Assembly: GCA_020632035.1 (NCBI GenBank)
Contig: JACKGG010000002.1
Coordinates: 24,095 to 88,094 of the forward strand
Source: Candidatus Nomurabacteria bacterium
GTDB taxonomy: Bacteria; Patescibacteriota; Minisyncoccia; Phycocordibacterales; UBA918
DNA length: 64,000 bases
Direction of reading: 5' to 3'
The notes under the pieces: generated by a model
What the model saw: the letters and a program-made list of their open reading frames with translations, nothing else
What the model was told of the DNA's origin: nothing
Database searches by the model: none
Shown: piece after piece, positions 5,938 to 52,964 of the stretch
How positions within the stretch are numbered: position 1 is the first letter of the stretch
How the letters are laid out: each line of letters begins with the position of its first letter
Position numbers and translations under genes: made by a program

Positions 5938-6810
5938 TTGATTTATATGGACTTTCCAATTTTAGAGTTAATGGCTGGGGAATTTCCATCAGGCTTGAGG
6001 GAAATTCCCCAGCCGCCGAAATCCCTCAATTACCGTGGTCTCCTCCCTTCCACCGACCTCACACTTCTTTCTATTGTTGGTTCACGCAAATACACCACCT
6101 ACGGTAAGCAAGTAGTGGACGATCTAGTGTCCGGTCTAGCTGGCTACCCTATCGGTATTGTGTCTGGCATGGCTCTTGGGATTGATTCATTAGCCCACGA
6201 AACAGCCTTGATTAATAATTTATATACACTCGCCATTCCCGGCGGAGGTCTTTCAGACCGCCGCCTCTACCCCGCCACTCACAAGAAATTAGCTTTCCGA
6301 ATTCTTGAGGCGGGCGGAGGACTGCTATCGGAATTTGATCCTGATTTTCAAGCAACTCGTTATTCATTTGTACAACGAAATCGTTTAGTGGCTGGTATCA
6401 GCATGGCCACTCTACTCATAGAGGCCGGGGATAAATCTGGTACACTTATTACTGCTCGCATGGTAGCCGATTATAACCGTGAACTATTGGTTGTACCCGG
6501 CAGTATTTTTTCATCCAATAGCAAAGGTGTGCATCAGTTCCTAAAACTTGGAGCTACCCCAGTAACATCAAGTAAAGATATTCTTGATGTGTTACACATT
6601 GAGACCAATCTCAAAGACTCATCACAATTATCTCTAATCTTATCCCCAGTTGAGACACTCATACTTTCACACCTTGCCGAACCAACCCACAAAGACGATT
6701 TAATACGAAAAATCAACCTTCCTACCAACGAGGCTTCTCAGATTTTGATGTTGATGGAACTCCAAGGACACGTCAAAAGCGAACAAAATATATACAGGAC
6801 AAATCTCTAG
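5938..6810 (+). CDS. dprA: DNA processing protein DprA/Smf
   Basis: Rossmann-like DprA core (LSIVGSRKYTTYGKQVV…GIVSGMALGIDSLAHETAL…GDKSGTLITARMVADYNREL). Sits in the classic dprA-topA arrangement. Confidence 0.85.
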   Translation: MIYMDFPILELMAGEFPSGLREIPQPPKSLNYRGLLPSTDLTLLSIVGSRKYTTYGKQVVDDLVSGLAGYPIGIVSGMALGIDSLAHETALINNLYTLAIPGGGLSDRRLYPATHKKLAFRILEAGGGLLSEFDPDFQATRYSFVQRNRLVAGISMATLLIEAGDKSGTLITARMVADYNRELLVVPGSIFSSNSKGVHQFLKLGATPVTSSKDILDVLHIETNLKDSSQLSLILSPVETLILSHLAEPTHKDDLIRKINLPTNEASQILMLMELQGHVKSEQNIYRTNL

Positions 6811-12499: not shown

Positions 12500-12653
12500 G
12501 TGTCTTGTGATGGAGTCGGTTATTACATAATCAATACTCGTTTTGGATGGATTGTTTCGAAACTCACAATCCATCTCAAAAAAGCTTCGACTCGTGCAAG
12601 GCTTTTCAAAGAAAAGCTGCACCCCGAGGCACAGCTTTCACTCCGTTCATTTG
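12500..12653 (-). repeat. Possible degenerate tRNA-3'-linked element downstream of tRNA-Leu(CAA)
   Basis: Minus-strand sense shows a terminator hairpin right after the tRNA, then ttgaaaag…cacgagtcgaa (partial complement of the T-loop), an A/T hairpin ggattgtgagtttcgaaacaatcc, and ccgactccatcac (degenerate copy of the tRNA T-loop/3' stem). Weak match to the family described in findings. Confidence 0.25.
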
Positions 12654-12735
12654 TGCCTCGAGAGGGAGTCGAACCCTCAAGCCTTACGGCATACGATTTT
12701 GAGTCGTACGTGTATACCAATTCCACCATCGAGGC
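12654..12735 (-). tRNA. tRNA-Leu (anticodon CAA), long variable arm
   Basis: Manual fold: acceptor GCCTCGA/TCGAGGC; anticodon stem TACGA/TCGTA with loop CTCAAAA; variable arm ATGCCGTAAGGCT; T-arm GAGGG-TTCGACT-CCCTC. Confidence 0.8.
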
Positions 12736-14160: not shown

Positions 14161-14231
14161 GGGTCTATAGTTTAGTGGTAAAATTTCGGTCTCCAAAACC
14201 GACGTCCGAGGTTCGAGTCCTCGTGGACCCG
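14161..14231 (+). tRNA. tRNA-Trp (anticodon CCA)
   Basis: Acceptor GGGTCTA/TGGACCC; anticodon stem TCGGT/ACCGA with loop CTCCAAA; T-arm CGAGG-TTCGAGT-CCTCG; discriminator G. CCA not encoded. Confidence 0.8.
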
Positions 14232-14232
14232 C

Positions 14233-14542
14233 ATAAAACATTACGTCCTAATGCGTCTAGCATTGGGGCGTTTATGTTTTACGGTACTAAGAGGACTCGA
14301 AAAGGTTGCCTGATATTTTGTGACGTAGGAGCAAAAATATCGACAACCTGTACTGAATCTGTAAGATTCGAGTCCTCGTGGACCCGCATAAAACATTACG
14401 TCCTAATGCGTCTAGCATTGGGGCGTTTATGTTTTACGGTACTAAGAGGACTCGAAAAGGTTGCCTGATATTTTGTGACGTAGGAGCAAAAATATCGACA
14501 ACCTGTACTGAATCTGTAAGATTCGAGTCCTCGTGGACCCGC
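14233..14542 (+). repeat. Two perfect tandem copies (155 bp each) of a tRNA-3'-end-linked structured element (family I), directly after tRNA-Trp
   Basis: Units 14233-14387 and 14388-14542 are identical. Each has an A/T hairpin (aaaacat…atgtttt), an anti-T segment gaggactcgaa, the core gaaaaggttgcctGATATTTTGtgacgtaggagCAAAATATCgacaacctgtactGAATCtgtaaGATTC, then gagtcctcgtggacccgc, a copy of the tRNA-Trp T-loop and 3' end. Overlapping track ORFs here are artefacts. Confidence 0.85.
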
Positions 14543-14582: not shown

Positions 14583-14589
14583 CAAGCGA

Positions 14590-14722
14590 GGGCTACGAGG
14601 ACTCGAAAGCCGGAACCGGTACACAAGCCGACGAGCTTGCGAGGAGGGCTTGTCGGTGAGGCGGGGTCGAGAAAAATTTTCGTAGAAAATTTATTCGTGA
14701 CCGAGTCCTCATGGACCCATAA
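14590..14722 (+). repeat. Third, divergent tRNA-Trp-linked unit (family II architecture)
   Basis: Contains the anti-T segment gaggactcgaaag, a GC-rich hairpin, an A/T hairpin gagaaaaattttc-gta-gaaaatttattc, then gtgaccgagtcctcatggaccc, a degenerate copy of the tRNA-Trp 3' end. Confidence 0.6.
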
Positions 14723-24472: not shown

Positions 24473-24558
24473 GCCCGGGTGGTGGAATCGGTAGACACGA
24501 GGGACTTAAAATCCCTTGCCTTTTAAACGGCGTGCGGGTTCAATTCCCGCCCCGGGCA
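24473..24558 (+). tRNA. tRNA-Leu (anticodon TAA), long variable arm
   Basis: Acceptor GCCCGGG/CCCGGGC; anticodon stem AGGGA/TCCCT with loop CTTAAAA; T-arm CGGGTTCAATTCCCG; discriminator A. Confidence 0.8.
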
Positions 24559-24561
24559 CCG

Positions 24562-24987
24562 AAATAATGAGTCAGACCTTGTGTCTGGCTTATTATTTTG
24601 GTCAAGGGAATTGAAAAGGTTAGTCAGATATTTTGGAGCTTGCGAACAAAATATCGACAACCTGTACTGATCCTGTAAGGATCAATTCCCGCCCCGGGCA
24701 CCGAAATAATGAGTCAGACCTTGTGTCTGGCTTATTATTTTGGTCAAGGGAATTGAAAAGGTTAGTCAGATATTTTGGAGCTTGCGAACAAAATATCGAC
24801 AACCTGTACTGATCCTGTAAGGATCAATTCCCGCCCCGGGCACCGAAATAATGAGTCAGACCTTGTGTCTGGCTTATTATTTTGGTCAAGGGAATTGAAA
24901 AGGTTAGTCAGATATTTTGGAGCTTGCGAACAAAATATCGACAACCTGTACTGATCCTGTAAGGATCAATTCCCGCCCCGGGCACCG
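24562..24987 (+). repeat. Three tandem 142-bp copies of a tRNA-3'-end-linked structured element (family I), directly after tRNA-Leu(TAA)
   Basis: Units 24562-24703, 24704-24845 and 24846-24987 are essentially identical. Two identical 60-aa track ORFs 142 bp apart confirm the period. Each unit has a terminator-like hairpin (aataatgagtcagac…gtctggcttattatttt), an anti-T segment gggaattga, the core gaaaaggttagtcaGATATTTTGgagcttgcgaaCAAAATATCgacaacctgtactGATCCtgtaaGGATC, then aattcccgccccgggcaccg, a copy of the tRNA-Leu T-loop and 3' end. Confidence 0.85.
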
Positions 24988-26703: not shown

Positions 26704-26786
26704 GCGCAGGTGGCGAAATTGGTATACGCGCTAGTTTTAGGCACTAGTGGAGCAATCCGTGGAGGTTCAAGTCCTCTCCTGCGCAC
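26704..26786 (+). tRNA. tRNA-Leu (anticodon TAG), long variable arm
   Basis: Acceptor GCGCAGG/CCTGCGC; anticodon stem CTAGT/ACTAG with loop TTTAGGC; variable arm TGGAGCAATCCGTG; T-arm GGAGG-TTCAAGT-CCTCT. Confidence 0.8.
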
Positions 26787-26815
26787 TAAGAAAACCCACT
26801 TTGGTGGGTTTTTGT

Positions 26816-26946
26816 GTGCTCAGGAAGCAAAGTCTGGAAGACTTTGTGTGAGGGTTTGAAAAGGTTGCCAGTTATTTTGGAGCTTGTGAACAAAATAACG
26901 ACAACCTGTACTGAACTCGTAGAGTTCAATTCCTCTCCTGCGCACA
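26816..26946 (+). repeat. Single copy of the tRNA-3'-end-linked structured element (family I) after tRNA-Leu(TAG)
   Basis: A terminator hairpin (aaaacccac…gtgggttttt) at 26787-26815 precedes the unit. The unit has gagggtttgaaaaggttgccaGTTATTTTGgagcttgtgaaCAAAATAACgacaacctgtactGAACTCgtaGAGTTC, then aattcctctcctgcgcaca, a near-copy of the tRNA-Leu(TAG) T-loop and 3' end. Both stems differ from loci A and B only by compensatory changes. Confidence 0.8.
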
Positions 26947-26949
26947 TAT

Positions 26950-26980
26950 AACAAAAAACCGGCTATGCCGGTTTTTTGTT
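26950..26980. terminator. Bidirectional hairpin terminator
   Basis: Stem aacaaaaaaccggc / gccggttttttgtt with T runs on both sides; sits between the repeat unit and the convergent trhO. Confidence 0.65.
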
Positions 26981-28016
26981 ATGCGACTAATCTCGTCTTC
27001 TCAAACGGCTTTCGCTTCCGTATGTATAAATTGTAGTATTTGGCCAGAGTCTTCTTTGTTTGAGTCGGAAGCTTGTCTACTTGCGCGCACTTCCAAGAAC
27101 AATAGCCGTCTTTCTTTTTCATACAAGAATCACAGCCAATAAAAAGAATATGACAAATTTGATTTTTGCAGTGGTGATGTGTGTCGCTCTTAGTTTCCTT
27201 GCAAAGATGACAGTTAGAAATGATTTCATCTCCCACTCTTTCACCTAATCTCTCATCAAACACGAAGTTTTTGCCCTTAAATTTGTTCTCCAACCCTTGT
27301 TGCTTTACCTGGTGAGCGTAGTCAATAATCCCTCCCTTTAGGTGTCGCACGTCTTCAAAGCCATTATGCTTAAGCCAGGCACTAGCTTTCTCACAACGAA
27401 TTCCGCCAGTACAGTACAAAGCAATTTTTTTATTCTTATGAATTTTAAGTAGTTCTGGAGTCTTTTTTAATTCATCACGGAAAGTAACTACATTCGGAGT
27501 AATAGCAGATTCAAAGTGACCAACTTCAGATTCATAGTTATTGCGCATATCTACCACCACTGCATCTGGATCTTCGATGTATTGGTTCATCTCCTTTGCA
27601 GTTAGATAAGCTCCGGTGTTGGTCACATCGAAAGAAGCATCATCAAGGCCGTCGGCGACGATTTTTTTACGAACTTTAATATTTAATTTGTAGAAAGATG
27701 GAATATCTGCTTCTTCAACGGCAATCTTGTATGGTATCCCGGCCAATTCCGGCTGAGATTGTACCCAAGCATCGAACTGATCCCAATACATTTTAGGAAC
27801 GTTCATTTGAGCATTAATACCTTCATTGGCAATATATATACGACCAAAGCAATCTAGCTCCGACCACTTATCAAGGAGTCGACGCCGAAAAGCTTCTGGG
27901 TCAGAAATCTTCACATAACGGTAGAAAGACAGCGTAGTTCGTGGCCTTTCATCCATAGCAGCTAGCCGGCGCTTTTCAGCACGACTAGTCGGATCTGTCC
28001 TTACAGCTAGATTCAT
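26979..28016 (-). CDS. trhO: Rhodanese-domain tRNA uridine(34) hydroxylase TrhO (YceA/UPF0176 family) with Cys-rich C-terminal extension
   Basis: …LSFYRYVKISDPEAFRRRLLDKWSELDCFGRIYIANEGINAQM… then rhodanese region (…IALYCTGGIRCEKASAWLK…). C-terminal CHLCKETKSDTHHHCKNQICHILFIGCDSCMKKKDGYCSWKC. Start may be the internal Met at 27956. Confidence 0.8.
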   Translation of the reverse strand: MNLAVRTDPTSRAEKRRLAAMDERPRTTLSFYRYVKISDPEAFRRRLLDKWSELDCFGRIYIANEGINAQMNVPKMYWDQFDAWVQSQPELAGIPYKIAVEEADIPSFYKLNIKVRKKIVADGLDDASFDVTNTGAYLTAKEMNQYIEDPDAVVVDMRNNYESEVGHFESAITPNVVTFRDELKKTPELLKIHKNKKIALYCTGGIRCEKASAWLKHNGFEDVRHLKGGIIDYAHQVKQQGLENKFKGKNFVFDERLGERVGDEIISNCHLCKETKSDTHHHCKNQICHILFIGCDSCMKKKDGYCSWKCAQVDKLPTQTKKTLAKYYNLYIRKRKPFEKTRLVA

Positions 28017-30641: not shown

Positions 30642-31181
30642 CTAGTTTGTCACTGGAGGTTCAATACTTCTATCAACGGGACCTGGGTTTCCTCCTCCGG
30701 TGCCAGGACCAGGATTACTTCCTCCAGTGCCGGGGCCTGGATTACTTCCTCCAGTACCTGGACCAGGGTTTTCACCTCCTGTGCCGGGACCGGGGTTTTC
30801 ACCTCCTGTGCCGGGACCGGGGTTTTCACCACCGGGGATACTCGTATCAGGTAATACAAAAGCATCTCCACAGTCTGGTCCGCTTGGGTTATTGGCACAA
30901 TCTAGTTGTTTATCAAGACCAAAAGTAGAAGTAGCAATACTCAATATAGCAAAAGCTGAAAGCATCACCACTAGGCCAATTATCCCAAAAGTGATATGCT
31001 TTACTCCCTGCCCCCTCGCTGTTTCGTTGGCAGAATTAACAAAGTATTCTACACAACCCCAAACAAAAACAAGAAAAGCTACCGCACTAAGAAGAGCGAT
31101 AGTAGGAAACAATATAATGTCATTAAATTTATCTACAAATTTAGCAGCTTCTTCGGTCGCTTGTTGTTGAGGTGTTGCCAT
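30642..31181 (-). CDS. Two-helix pilin-like membrane protein (VirB2/TrbC-like topology) with C-terminal (GENPGPGTG)x6 repeat tail
   Basis: Two hydrophobic helices (ILFPTIALLSAVAFLVFVWG…/…TFGIIGLVVMLSAFAILSIA) separated by a short polar loop, then six nine-residue Gly/Pro repeats. Confidence 0.7.
   Translation of the reverse strand: MATPQQQATEEAAKFVDKFNDIILFPTIALLSAVAFLVFVWGCVEYFVNSANETARGQGVKHITFGIIGLVVMLSAFAILSIATSTFGLDKQLDCANNPSGPDCGDAFVLPDTSIPGGENPGPGTGGENPGPGTGGENPGPGTGGSNPGPGTGGSNPGPGTGGGNPGPVDRSIEPPVTN
30683..30843 (-). repeat. In-frame 27-bp tandem repeat (6 copies) encoding GENPGPGTG
   Basis: cctcctccggtgccaggaccaggattactt… and related units repeated head-to-tail; the track protein shows GENPGPGTGG x3 then GSNPGPGTGG x2 and GGNPGP. 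Confidence 0.85.
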
Positions 31182-39934: not shown

Positions 39935-40087
39935 ATGCTTAATCTTCACGGACCGCCCGCCAAGGGCAAACTGGCTTCGTCCAAGGTAAATTTTTATTTT
40001 AAACGCGGCGACAACGACAACCTGCGCGACGACGGCGGCCACCTGGGCGACGACGGCGGCCACCTGGGCGATATTATCTCAGACTGA
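39935..40087 (+). CDS. Candidate small ORF (50 aa) with good RBS; contains the GC-rich tandem repeat
   Basis: AGAGGGA 5 nt before ATG. MLNLHGPPAKGKLASSKVNFYFKRGDNDNLRDDGGHLGDDGGHLGDIISD. Below the track's length cut-off. A 17-aa ORF (39808-39861, MRREKRFIARQSRSETT) with RBS GGGAGA lies upstream. Confidence 0.3.
   Translation: MLNLHGPPAKGKLASSKVNFYFKRGDNDNLRDDGGHLGDDGGHLGDIISD
40028..40069. repeat. 21-bp GC-rich perfect tandem direct repeat (2 copies)
   Basis: gacgacggcggccacctgggc occurs twice head-to-tail; about 75% GC in an otherwise AT-rich intergenic region. Confidence 0.85.
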
Positions 40088-47813: not shown

Positions 47814-47864
47814 AGACTAAATATCATTAACGATATAAATAATACTACTATGATGATTTCTTAC

Positions 47865-48000
47865 AAACGTCTACCTATCATCAATAATATAAAAAATACT
47901 ACTACAGTGATCGGTTATAAACGTCTACCTATCATCAATAATAAGAATCTTACTTCAGTAGTAAATAGACCAAGCTACCTATCCTTGATGATAGATAGTA
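47865..48000. repeat. Direct and inverted repeats in the AT-rich ftsA-ftsZ spacer
   Basis: aaacgtctacctatcatcaataata at 47865-47889 and 47919-47943 (25-bp perfect direct repeat); partial inverted copy ctacctatccttgatgatag near 47972. Confidence 0.8.
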
Positions 48001-49439: not shown

Positions 49440-49645
49440 AATATAATTCTGTCATAACTGGCTCAATGCTAAATATCAGCTCCTCAGTCAGTATGAATGG
49501 GGTGAGACTGTCGCAAGACCTTGCCAGACAATTTACAAATACTTGAAGTAAAGTGTCGAAAAGGTGTACCGTCTAGTCGAGAAGGTACCGGCATTTCTAC
49601 GTAGAAGTAAACCTAAATAGTTTACTTAGAAGTAAGAACAAACAA

Positions 49646-52575: not shown

Positions 52576-52960
52576 CAAAACGAGACTTCGTCTCGACACA
52601 AGGAGCGCGCCGAAGGCGCGCGAGAAGAAGAAAGTGGAAAAATACCCTGTCGCGTAGCGACGGATTGGGACGGGACGGGTGCGAGAGTACTTAGTAGATT
52701 TTGCACGAAGTGCAAAAATATACTTAGTAACTCGTGACCACAAGTACTTTTGTCTCAAAAATAATTCAGGGCCCATGTTTTCGTTCGTGATCCAAGAGAA
52801 AGACGCTAGTGCGTCTTTTGTGGGAATCGAACCAGCGGAGTCATCCTGCACGGAGCGAAGCGAGTACAGAAGTCGAGGCATGTCCCGCGGCACTTCTTAT
52901 TTTGTGAGGTACGAAACAAAATAAGTTAGTGACCGTCAGGATCATTCCCCGGGGGATCAC
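52576..52960 (+). repeat. tRNA-Glu-linked structured element(s) (family II architecture) ending in a copy of the tRNA-Glu 3' end
   Basis: Several hairpins (cgagacttcgtctcg; gcgcgccgaaggcgcgc; tttgcacgaagtgcaaaa). Anti-T segment gggaatcgaacc at 52822-52833. A/T hairpin cttattttgt-gaggtacgaa-acaaaataag. Then gtgaccgtcaggatcattccccgggggatcac at 52929-52960, which copies the tRNA-Glu T-loop and 3' end (attccccgtgggatcac). Confidence 0.65.
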
Positions 52961-52964
52961 TAAG

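Follow-up and report, generated by a model that had tools for sequence, protein, structure and literature searches.

What kind of sequence sits behind the tRNA-Leu(TAG) gene of a Candidatus Nomurabacteria genome, and why does it end in a second copy of the tRNA's own 3' part? The gene (26704-26786, + strand; called by ARAGORN and by Rfam RF00005 at 56.2 bits) lies in a 64,000-nucleotide stretch of contig JACKGG010000002.1, hereafter the window. An initial annotation had described there the third locus of a repeat family: a unit with a terminator hairpin, two core stems and a near-copy of the tRNA end, on which selection was proposed to act at the level of structure. Beyond that description, the unit is an insertion/deletion-polymorphic element found in about 100 species. 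It represents a family of tRNA-end-specific structured micro-elements in bacteria of the candidate phyla radiation (CPR) that is apparently undescribed so far; full-text searches of the literature found no description of these units. They may be miniature integrative elements, a reading that is weighed below against its rivals.

All the parts listed by the initial annotation were found where it had placed them (terminator, stem 1, stem 2 and the tRNA-end near-copy), while the start of the unit had to be moved upstream to include two further parts, segA and P0. Every feature of the locus is on the + strand. The relevant portion of the tRNA, segment 'b', runs from the T-loop to the discriminator (26766-26786). 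Behind the gene stands a terminator-like hairpin identified from sequence and fold, AAAACCCAC-TTTG-GTGGGTTTT (hairpin 1, 26790-26813). We assign it to the inserted unit because the tRNA-adjacent hairpin falls inside the 156-nt indel that separates two metagenome strains described below (L125 and L132; loci outside the window bear L numbers). According to the fold, segA (26814-26825) is the complement of the acceptor 3' strand plus the discriminator, with its partner at 26936-26947, and is followed by the hairpin P0 (26827-26847). SegA is also present in L015, L044, L060 and L069, and P0 recurs in relatives as a CTGGGAG-loop hairpin, commonly C-UGGGA-G, the loop being GGA in the tRNA-Leu(TAG) unit. 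Next comes segB (GAGGGTTTGAA, 26850-26860), the complement of the T-loop and the T-stem 3' strand and the 5' strand of the closing helix P1. Complementarity to the T-loop in this region had been called partial; segB pairs with the tRNA sequence TTCAAGTCCTC at 11 of 11 positions, two G.T wobbles included, and with one mismatch with the mutated local copy of the tRNA end.

The core begins with P2 (26862-26907; supported by folds and covariation), a long bulged hairpin made of a basal helix AGGTTG/CAACCT, a bulged A, stem 1 (GTTATTTTG at 26871-26879 and CAAAATAAC at 26891-26899) and an apical GAGC..GTGAA loop. An invariant 16-mer, CGACAACCTGTACTGA (26899-26914), covers the P2a 3' strand together with the GTACT(GA) junction. 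It leads into the folded helix P3 (26912-26928), whose stem 2, GAACTC-GTA-GAGTTC, occupies 26913-26927. The last element, recognized by sequence comparison, is TTCAATTCCTCTCCTGCGCAC (26925-26945), a copy of tRNA positions 54-74 or 'displaced fragment'. The 3' strand of P3 is the TTC of the T-loop copy, and no unpaired base separates the helix from the copy. A single difference, G to T at 26930, distinguishes the copy from 26766-26786; since the copy is exact in L001, a near-identical Candidatus Nomurabacteria relative, the T of the window is a point mutation. A second terminator hairpin (26948-26982) is taken as the native terminator of the tRNA, given its fold and its analogy with the empty site of L132. 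Read in order, the unit consists of a terminator, the acceptor complement, P0, the T-loop/T-stem complement, a three-way-junction core around the invariant GACAACCTGTACTGA and the tRNA 54-74 copy, after which the native terminator follows.

When the in-silico folding proposed by the initial annotation was carried out, the whole tRNA-Leu(TAG) region, taken as one strand, folded at -86.1 kcal/mol (z = -9.5). In this fold the tRNA-end copy is the partner of both segA and segB, and the junction that they close bears P0, P2 and P3. The related idea of a minihelix-like tRNA mimic fits this unit, which can form an acceptor-like and a T-stem-like helix, and fails for the tRNA-Trp and tRNA-Leu(TAA) units of the window, which lack the acceptor complement.

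Is the fold under selection? The initial annotation had argued so from compensatory changes in both core stems, among them an A-T to T-A swap in stem 1, an argument that a larger alignment might have overturned. Instead, the compensatory changes were consistent, and covariation in 70 and 25 independent sequences upholds selection on structure. Among 70 distinct units from genome loci and the window, 90.7% of cells are paired, compared with 30-51% when partners are slid, and double changes occur in 20 of 32 pairs. The swap itself lies in column 25:57, which reads AU 31, CG 22, GC 8 and UA 3. In 25 distinct metagenome units the figures are 88.4% versus 34-49%, with double changes in 28 of 32 pairs, although this second alignment was fitted to the model and therefore leans towards structure. 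Shuffled data never matched the observed values in either set (0 of 500 each).

Covariation is present in P1, P2 and P3. Pairing in P3 stands at 99.3% across 12 or more stem sequences, and the closing helix P1 changes in step with tRNA identity (columns 7:90 and 9:88). For the basal helix AGGTTG/CAACCT, the search pattern allowed no variation in the set of 70; among the metagenome units this helix covaries too (column 16:79, for instance, reads CG 10, GC 10 and UA 3). The junction strands GAA(A) and GTACT(GA), the bulged A in P2 and one C.A/U-A position are constant, and P2 usually ends in an apical loop of the UGAGC..GCGAA type. On the tRNA-sense strand, G.T mismatches outnumber A.C mismatches (66:19 and 47:28, with the conserved C.A set aside), which is modest evidence that the sense strand is functional as a single strand, either RNA or single-stranded DNA (ssDNA). 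A sigma-70-like motif (xxGACA, 16 nt, TAnnnT) is also found within the core, at 14340-14367 in the window and at the equivalent positions of every unit, and points into the tRNA-end copy. An internal promoter of this kind was discarded as the explanation of the core, as it leaves the invariant spacer and the covarying P3 unexplained.

How widespread are such units, and what do they have in common? When the core pattern was searched in 185,579 species genomes, 101 stretches were obtained, two of them chance matches, and the hosts were almost all Patescibacteria (Paceibacteria, Saccharibacteria, Kaiserbacteria, Nomurabacteria and others). The exact core, a 15-mer, is present in 115 units from about 100 species genomes. 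Ninety-one of the 115 lie no more than 460 nt downstream of a same-strand tRNA, and 12 are cut by locus ends. Units are co-oriented with their tRNA and always matched to it, even though the tRNAs concerned span 17 amino-acid classes and 29 anticodons. An exact copy of the neighbouring tRNA, at least 19 nt long, ends 51 of the 115 units; the copy extends from T54/T55 to the discriminator and does not include CCA even where CCA is gene-encoded. A downstream tRNA-end copy stands behind 83 of the 185 tRNAs in the fetched loci. Units measure about 90-160 nt and contain no open reading frame (ORF). Their distribution is patchy, with a copy number of 1 to 3, and decayed copies and nested insertions occur. 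In most of them a strong terminator separates the tRNA from the core, and the acceptor complement is missing from many.

Evidence that the unit can be gained or lost came from a metagenome scan that made no use of the unit itself, in which the 5' part of tRNA-Leu(TAG) served as query and 53 loci were recovered. The site behind the tRNA is empty in L132, L138, L120 and L126; it holds the canonical core in L131, L135, L149 and L105, and variant cores that retain GTACTGA and P3 in L104, L114, L110, L125, L128 and L141. Other tRNA-Leu(TAG) loci bear other core families, and L149 carries two different core types in tandem. Of special interest is the pair L125 and L132, which share 99.8% identity over 3079 nt upstream and 100% downstream, and which are set apart by exactly one 156-nt unit. 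In the empty L132, the tRNA directly abuts the terminator that in the occupied L125 comes after the copy. The unit has therefore been gained or lost on a strain time-scale. The layout behind the tRNA is a 54-74 copy with its own terminator, the complement, the core ending in ..TTC, and a second 54-74 copy with the native terminator. Placement behind the tRNA in the same orientation, presence or absence between strains, tandem pile-up of units with identical or different cores, and helix covariation are all observed.

A modular construction is also apparent: shared modules (terminator, P0, core) interleave with tRNA-specific ones (copy, segA, segB, copy). The core of the window tRNA-Leu(TAA) units is the same as that behind a tRNA-Pro (L057) and, except for P3, as that behind a tRNA-Val (L090). 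Within one metagenome-assembled genome, the units behind tRNA-Ser (L009) and tRNA-Lys (L014) share 70 of 72 core positions and have related P0 hairpins, and their tRNA-specific segments are unrelated. Terminator types are likewise common to different tRNAs (tRNA-Leu in the window and L088, tRNA-Arg in L078, tRNA-Val in L096). All the tRNA-specific segments are copies of a single duplex of about 21 bp, and in L010 the tRNA end, terminator and complement make up a perfect 69-nt palindrome.

Larger arrangements are found as well. In L076 (4958-6900, behind tRNA-Asn) and L049 (1800-3720, minus strand, behind tRNA-Gly), successive tRNA-end copies are 0.7-1.1 kb apart and each enclosed segment is followed by a core, giving cassette-like arrays. 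The cargo consists of small unknown ORFs in L076 and includes a cytidine/dCMP deaminase in L049, where the deaminase segment interrupts a tRNA-end copy, with ..TCACCC on one side and GCAC on the other; apart from the deaminase, cargo and neighbouring ORFs are housekeeping genes or have no assignment. Mirror cases are L003 (5650-6250, minus strand) and L017 (2440-2800, minus strand), in which a 55-nt tRNA 5' fragment, broken after T55, precedes the core. Downstream of the core come a short tRNA-end copy, its complement, a promoter-like spacer (with TATAAT in L017) and a complete tRNA. In the mirror cases, too, the break falls in the T-loop, and the regenerated gene once more receives what it needs from the element.

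Three further observations were made. A second small element, of at least about 75 nt (AyAArTTTyCTTTC..CACTCA..AAGTAA), is inserted directly after the P3-loop GTAA of some units in L002, L075 (1-2300, minus strand), L082 and L091; on the opposite strand it lies 3' of TTAC, which is reminiscent of target choice of the IS200/IS605 type. A different element of about 115 nt is found in L144 (990-1260) and L134. It lies within the anticodon loop of an upstream, truncated copy of tRNA-Leu(TAG); both the promoter region and the first 31 nt of that tRNA are present in duplicate. Lastly, two LAGLIDADG-like ORF families, one with an N-terminal helix-turn-helix, are present in L007, L055 (4038-4718), L057, L068, L081 and L082; in six of nine cases these ORFs end 8-76 nt upstream of a same-strand tRNA, far above chance. 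They were rejected as a partner linked to the units, as five of six such tRNAs carry units against a base rate of 45%, which is not significant.

What could such a unit be? The reading we favour, with a probability of roughly one half, is that it is a miniature, non-coding and non-autonomous integrative element for the 3' part of tRNA genes, a 'micro-island' acted on in trans at the T-loop. In tDNA islands (PMC4383910), the target gene is regenerated by element-borne sequence and a displaced fragment marks the other end. The favoured reading rests on the regenerated tRNA and displaced fragment, as in tDNA islands, combined with features of a folded single strand. The element would recombine with the tRNA gene inside the T-loop, the probable crossover lying at positions 54-56; the 3' half and terminator that it carries would regenerate the tRNA, and the chromosomal 3' half would stay downstream as the displaced fragment. 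The active form would be a folded single strand. Such a substrate is suggested by the covarying fold, by the P3/copy junction of zero nucleotides and by a complement that rebuilds the target duplex: together, complement and copy would recreate a duplex image of the tRNA gene T-loop/3' half beside the conserved junction. A circular form, [copy-terminator-complement-core], would be a dumbbell whose stem corresponds to the tRNA gene T-loop/3' half, with the circle junction at ..GTAAGCTTC|GAATCC..-terminator. A recombinase or nuclease encoded elsewhere might act on the fold. Known analogies are IntI, which acts on folded attC, and XerCD, which acts on the folded attP of CTX phage. To switch tRNA specificity, one templated replacement of the duplex of about 21 bp would suffice; as a speculation, the rewriting might occur by snap-back synthesis that starts at the terminator hairpin and at the end (3') of P3.

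Several points weigh against an integrative element. Integration at a non-cognate tRNA would break it, so simple site-specific recombination leaves unexplained how one scaffold comes to be at 29 anticodon species. Scans of 39 window ORFs and of the cargo ORFs revealed no integrase, recombinase, transposase, HUH enzyme or reverse transcriptase, nor did any such enzyme turn up in the recurrent ORF families of 99 loci, of which just a few representatives were compared with Pfam. Neither an excised circle nor a full-length autonomous relative was seen. The folding energies of the two strands are equal, giving no strand preference. In some units (for example L022, L045 and unit 1 of L149) tRNA and core are not separated by a terminator and must be transcribed together, which would suit an RNA role too. 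Finally, precise loss by recombination between the 21-nt repeats could yield presence or absence without insertion machinery.

The alternative that survives best, possible if not probable, is that the unit is the gene, or the co-transcribed 3' trailer, for a structured non-coding RNA (ncRNA) that rides on tRNA biogenesis, mobility being secondary. Complement and copy would then form an acceptor/T-stem-like helix for RNase P, RNase Z and the CCA-adding enzyme, and the junction would bind a protein or sense tRNA fragments. The tRNA-Leu(TAG) unit suits this idea, as its fold combines an acceptor-like helix and a T-stem-like helix with one side arm, and its 3' end falls at the discriminator, ahead of a terminator. 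So do the necessary transcription with the tRNA of units that have no intervening terminator, the G.U-type mismatches favoured on the sense strand, the RNA-like character of the apical tandem G.A motifs and of the conserved single-stranded junction bases (GAAA, GUACU), and the co-orientation of all units with their tRNA. However, a strong terminator stands between tRNA and core in most units and no conserved promoter lies upstream, while many units, those behind tRNA-Trp and tRNA-Leu(TAA) in the window among them, lack the acceptor complement. Further points against an RNA gene are the patchy distribution, the variation from 1 to 3 copies, the decayed copies and nested insertions, and the presence or absence between strains; and the mirror configurations with their promoter-like spacer better suit the integration of DNA.

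A bolder proposal, to which we give little credence, is that the unit is a programmable mobile module without a protein of its own. The conserved caps (terminator hairpin, P0 and core) would clamp the duplex of about 21 bp, the complement would guide the element, as RNA or ssDNA, onto the tRNA or its gene, the core might either catalyse a putative strand transfer at C56|R57 or direct a host enzyme to it, and snap-back synthesis would then reset both complement and copy to the new target. If this were true, the module would be an RNA- or ssDNA-guided tRNA-targeting insertion system with no dedicated gene in the element.

Are the units instead what deletion has left of integrase-encoding islands or prophages at tRNAs, with the core as an attP arm that carries sites for the integrase or accessory proteins? 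It is true that tDNA islands leave just such traces: the regenerated tRNA with its displaced 3' fragment, accumulation in tandem and, at times, cargo. Nevertheless we regard this origin as quite improbable. Not one unit among the approximately 150 loci is linked to an integrase-bearing element, and the core is absent from 2.9 million viral contigs, 50,697 phage records and 72,556 plasmid records, a negative that also discards an origin in phages or plasmids as such. Moreover, protein-binding arm sites should keep their sequence rather than covary as helices, and one core is found at 29 anticodon species, compared with normally one or a few sites per integrase family.

Passive, functionless products that arise at tRNA terminators when breaks are repaired or replication slips (snap-back or template-switch copying) could give perfect palindromes of tRNA end, terminator and complement such as the 69 nt of L010, a primer-template-like absence of unpaired bases between P3 and copy, and, by unequal crossing-over, identical tandem units, but they are very hard to reconcile with a 70-nt core whose 15-nt invariant block and covarying helices are kept over about 100 species, with non-templated shared modules (terminator type, P0, core) interleaved with tRNA-specific ones, or with compensatory changes, which go against neutral evolution of the core when this is tested.

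Known families and simpler identities were also considered. At the gathering threshold, Rfam 15 recognized only the 8 tRNAs of the window and no family for the units, and in E-value mode the tRNA-Trp array and 26780-26990 gave only sub-threshold terminator/hairpin noise. The units are not tRNAs or tRNA pseudogenes, as neither ARAGORN nor RF00005 calls them and their tRNA-derived part is limited to positions 54-74. Nor does the complement descend from the 5' half of the tRNA: its pairing takes in the T-loop, which no tRNA 5' half matches, as well as the discriminator and the base beyond, and it swaps real T-stem G.U pairs for A-U (L015, L049). A hammerhead was rejected by inspection, since the order P1-GAAA-P2-GUACUGA-P3-P1 does not map onto I-CUGANGA-II-GAA-III-H, and no Rfam ribozyme matched. 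In a box C/D-type guide, the sequence preceding CUGA would have to be tRNA-specific, and here it is invariant; as a mimic of the anticodon arm, P3 is discarded by its loop of 3 nt, closed by a Watson-Crick pair. A leader or regulator of a downstream gene was rejected, as all three canonical loci of the window face a convergent gene. A miniature inverted-repeat transposable element (MITE) was rejected on the grounds that the inverted ends vary with the tRNA, the direct repeat is 21 nt of tRNA, and a partner element was not found.

The rest of the window was examined with the same tools. The 16-mer CGACAACCTGTACTGA occurs six times, against 0.38 expected: two copies follow tRNA-Trp, three follow tRNA-Leu(TAA) and one follows tRNA-Leu(TAG). 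A covariance-model search, another check proposed by the initial annotation, was run with a model built from the 70 units, and the six window units scored 85-93 bits (E 1e-22 to 1e-24). The tRNA-Leu(TAG) locus is confirmed as a member of the family, although the total of three loci does not stand: the window holds at least five tRNA-linked loci and one orphan, and 5 of its 8 tRNAs are occupied.

Behind tRNA-Trp(CCA) (tRNA 14161-14232) are two identical 155-nt units (14233-14542, + strand; Tandem Repeats Finder (TRF) period 155, 100% identity), with model matches of 92.7 bits at 14290-14378 and 14445-14533. A unit of a second core family, K2, recognized from its sequence, closes this array (14586-14719, + strand). 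It comprises a complement to nearly all of the tRNA 3' half (14586-14607), a core unlike the canonical one and a copy, GAGTCCTCATGGACCCA (14703-14719); its core reads AGCCGGAACC..GGGGTCGAG..hairpin..GTGACC, and the tRNA-end copy follows. K2 homologues are units in L090, L031 and L048. Three identical 142-nt units lie behind tRNA-Leu(TAA) (tRNA 24473-24560; units 24561-24986, + strand; TRF period 142, 100% identity) and give three model matches of 85.2 bits.

Less regular copies were also detected. On the minus strand, tRNA-Leu(CAA) (12653-12735) is followed by a degenerate unit at 12509-12597 (44.3 bits, E 1.9e-10, and sequence), with GTATTGA at the junction and a decayed tRNA copy. Sequence inspection revealed a divergent K2-like unit after tRNA-Glu(TTC) (52822-52961, + strand) with the complement GTGGGAATCGAA, a stem 1-like hairpin at 52896-52925 and the copy ATTCCCCGGGGGATCAC. 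The region behind this tRNA (52580-52961) also contains a separate conserved hairpin, ACTTAGTAGATT..ATATACTTAGTAACTCGTGACCACA (about 52688-52745), which is found behind tRNA-Leu(TAG) in L127 and L130. An orphan core-like copy with no tRNA nearby lies downstream of ftsZ (49505-49597, + strand; 25.6 bits, E 5.6e-5, and sequence); its P2a is swapped to ACCTTG/AAAGGT and its junction is GTACCG. After it comes a hairpin motif, AGAAGTAAAC..GTTTACTT, that recurs in L110, L127 and L131.

The gene content of the window is that of an ordinary CPR chromosome (SerRS, DprA, TopA, RelA/SpoT, ParB, MiaA, ClpB, IF-2, GyrA, FtsA/FtsZ and Ddl). The DprA gene (5938-6810), whose product handles ssDNA in natural transformation, would be relevant if units spread as incoming single strands. 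Short-period tandem repeats detected by TRF (27/54, 21 and 54 nt) at 30677-30830, 40004-40071 and 47822-47943 are unrelated to the tRNA units.

Which known systems do the units resemble? They are closest in kind to tDNA islands and to folded att sites, and are distinct by their lack of genes and by matching the target on both sides. With tRNA/tmRNA islands that use tyrosine integrases (catalogued in Islander, PMC4383910) they share a split and regenerated target, a displaced fragment at the far end, a breakpoint in the T-loop region and stacking. Regenerated tRNA and displaced fragment are both present here (L125/L132, and the 51 exact copies of at least 19 nt). An internal integrase gene is absent, the units having no ORF and the cargo ORFs being the deaminase and unknowns. 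Unlike such islands, the units are gene-less and 90-160 nt long, they carry an inverted complement and a covarying three-way junction, and one scaffold serves 29 anticodons.

Likeness to integron attC and to the attP(+) of CTX phage lies in inverted segments that fold into a target-site duplex, in structure being conserved over sequence, in bulged bases, in cassette-like arrays with small cargo ORFs and, should the favoured reading hold, in an enzyme encoded outside the cassette. Imperfect folding inverted repeats with conserved structure are indeed what the covariation of P1, P2 and P3 reveals. The R''/R' sites of attC (RYYYAAC/GTTRRRY) are absent from the unit, and no integrase adjoins the window arrays. 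The units differ from both att sites in targeting the tRNA T-loop and in a paired segment specific to each tRNA rather than generic, and a role for IntI or Xer is not implied.

MITE-like repeats (REP/REPIN, ERIC, Correia, RUP) are similarly small, non-coding, palindromic and intergenic, often beside terminators, with variable copy number and compensatory stems; they are, however, dispersed and have fixed ends, whereas the units lie almost only behind tRNAs and carry ends rewritten to suit the tRNA next to them. The bridge RNA of IS110 and the omega RNA of TnpB/IscB are folded scaffolds interleaved with short segments that match the insertion target, as the units are; by comparison, the units have no recombinase or nuclease gene, their fold is unrelated (no Rfam match) and they contain both a complement and a copy of the target. 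A tRNA operon of Photobacterium phosphoreum described in the 1980s reportedly contains tandem tRNA-Pro 3' pseudogene repeats with terminator-like hairpins, for which we know of no conserved structured core or complement.

If the units are integrative elements, about half of the tRNA genes in many CPR genomes would bear tiny gene-less elements that integrate at the T-loop and leave the tRNA intact, and these would be the smallest 'islands' known. With a scaffold matched to 29 tRNA species, they would also pose a testable question: how a target-specific site can be rewritten without a protein encoded by the element. The family may serve as a source of strain-level markers in uncultivated bacteria, as landing pads that trap cargo and as a candidate new structured RNA or ssDNA motif, and it calls for caution in the annotation of tRNAs and islands in Patescibacteria.

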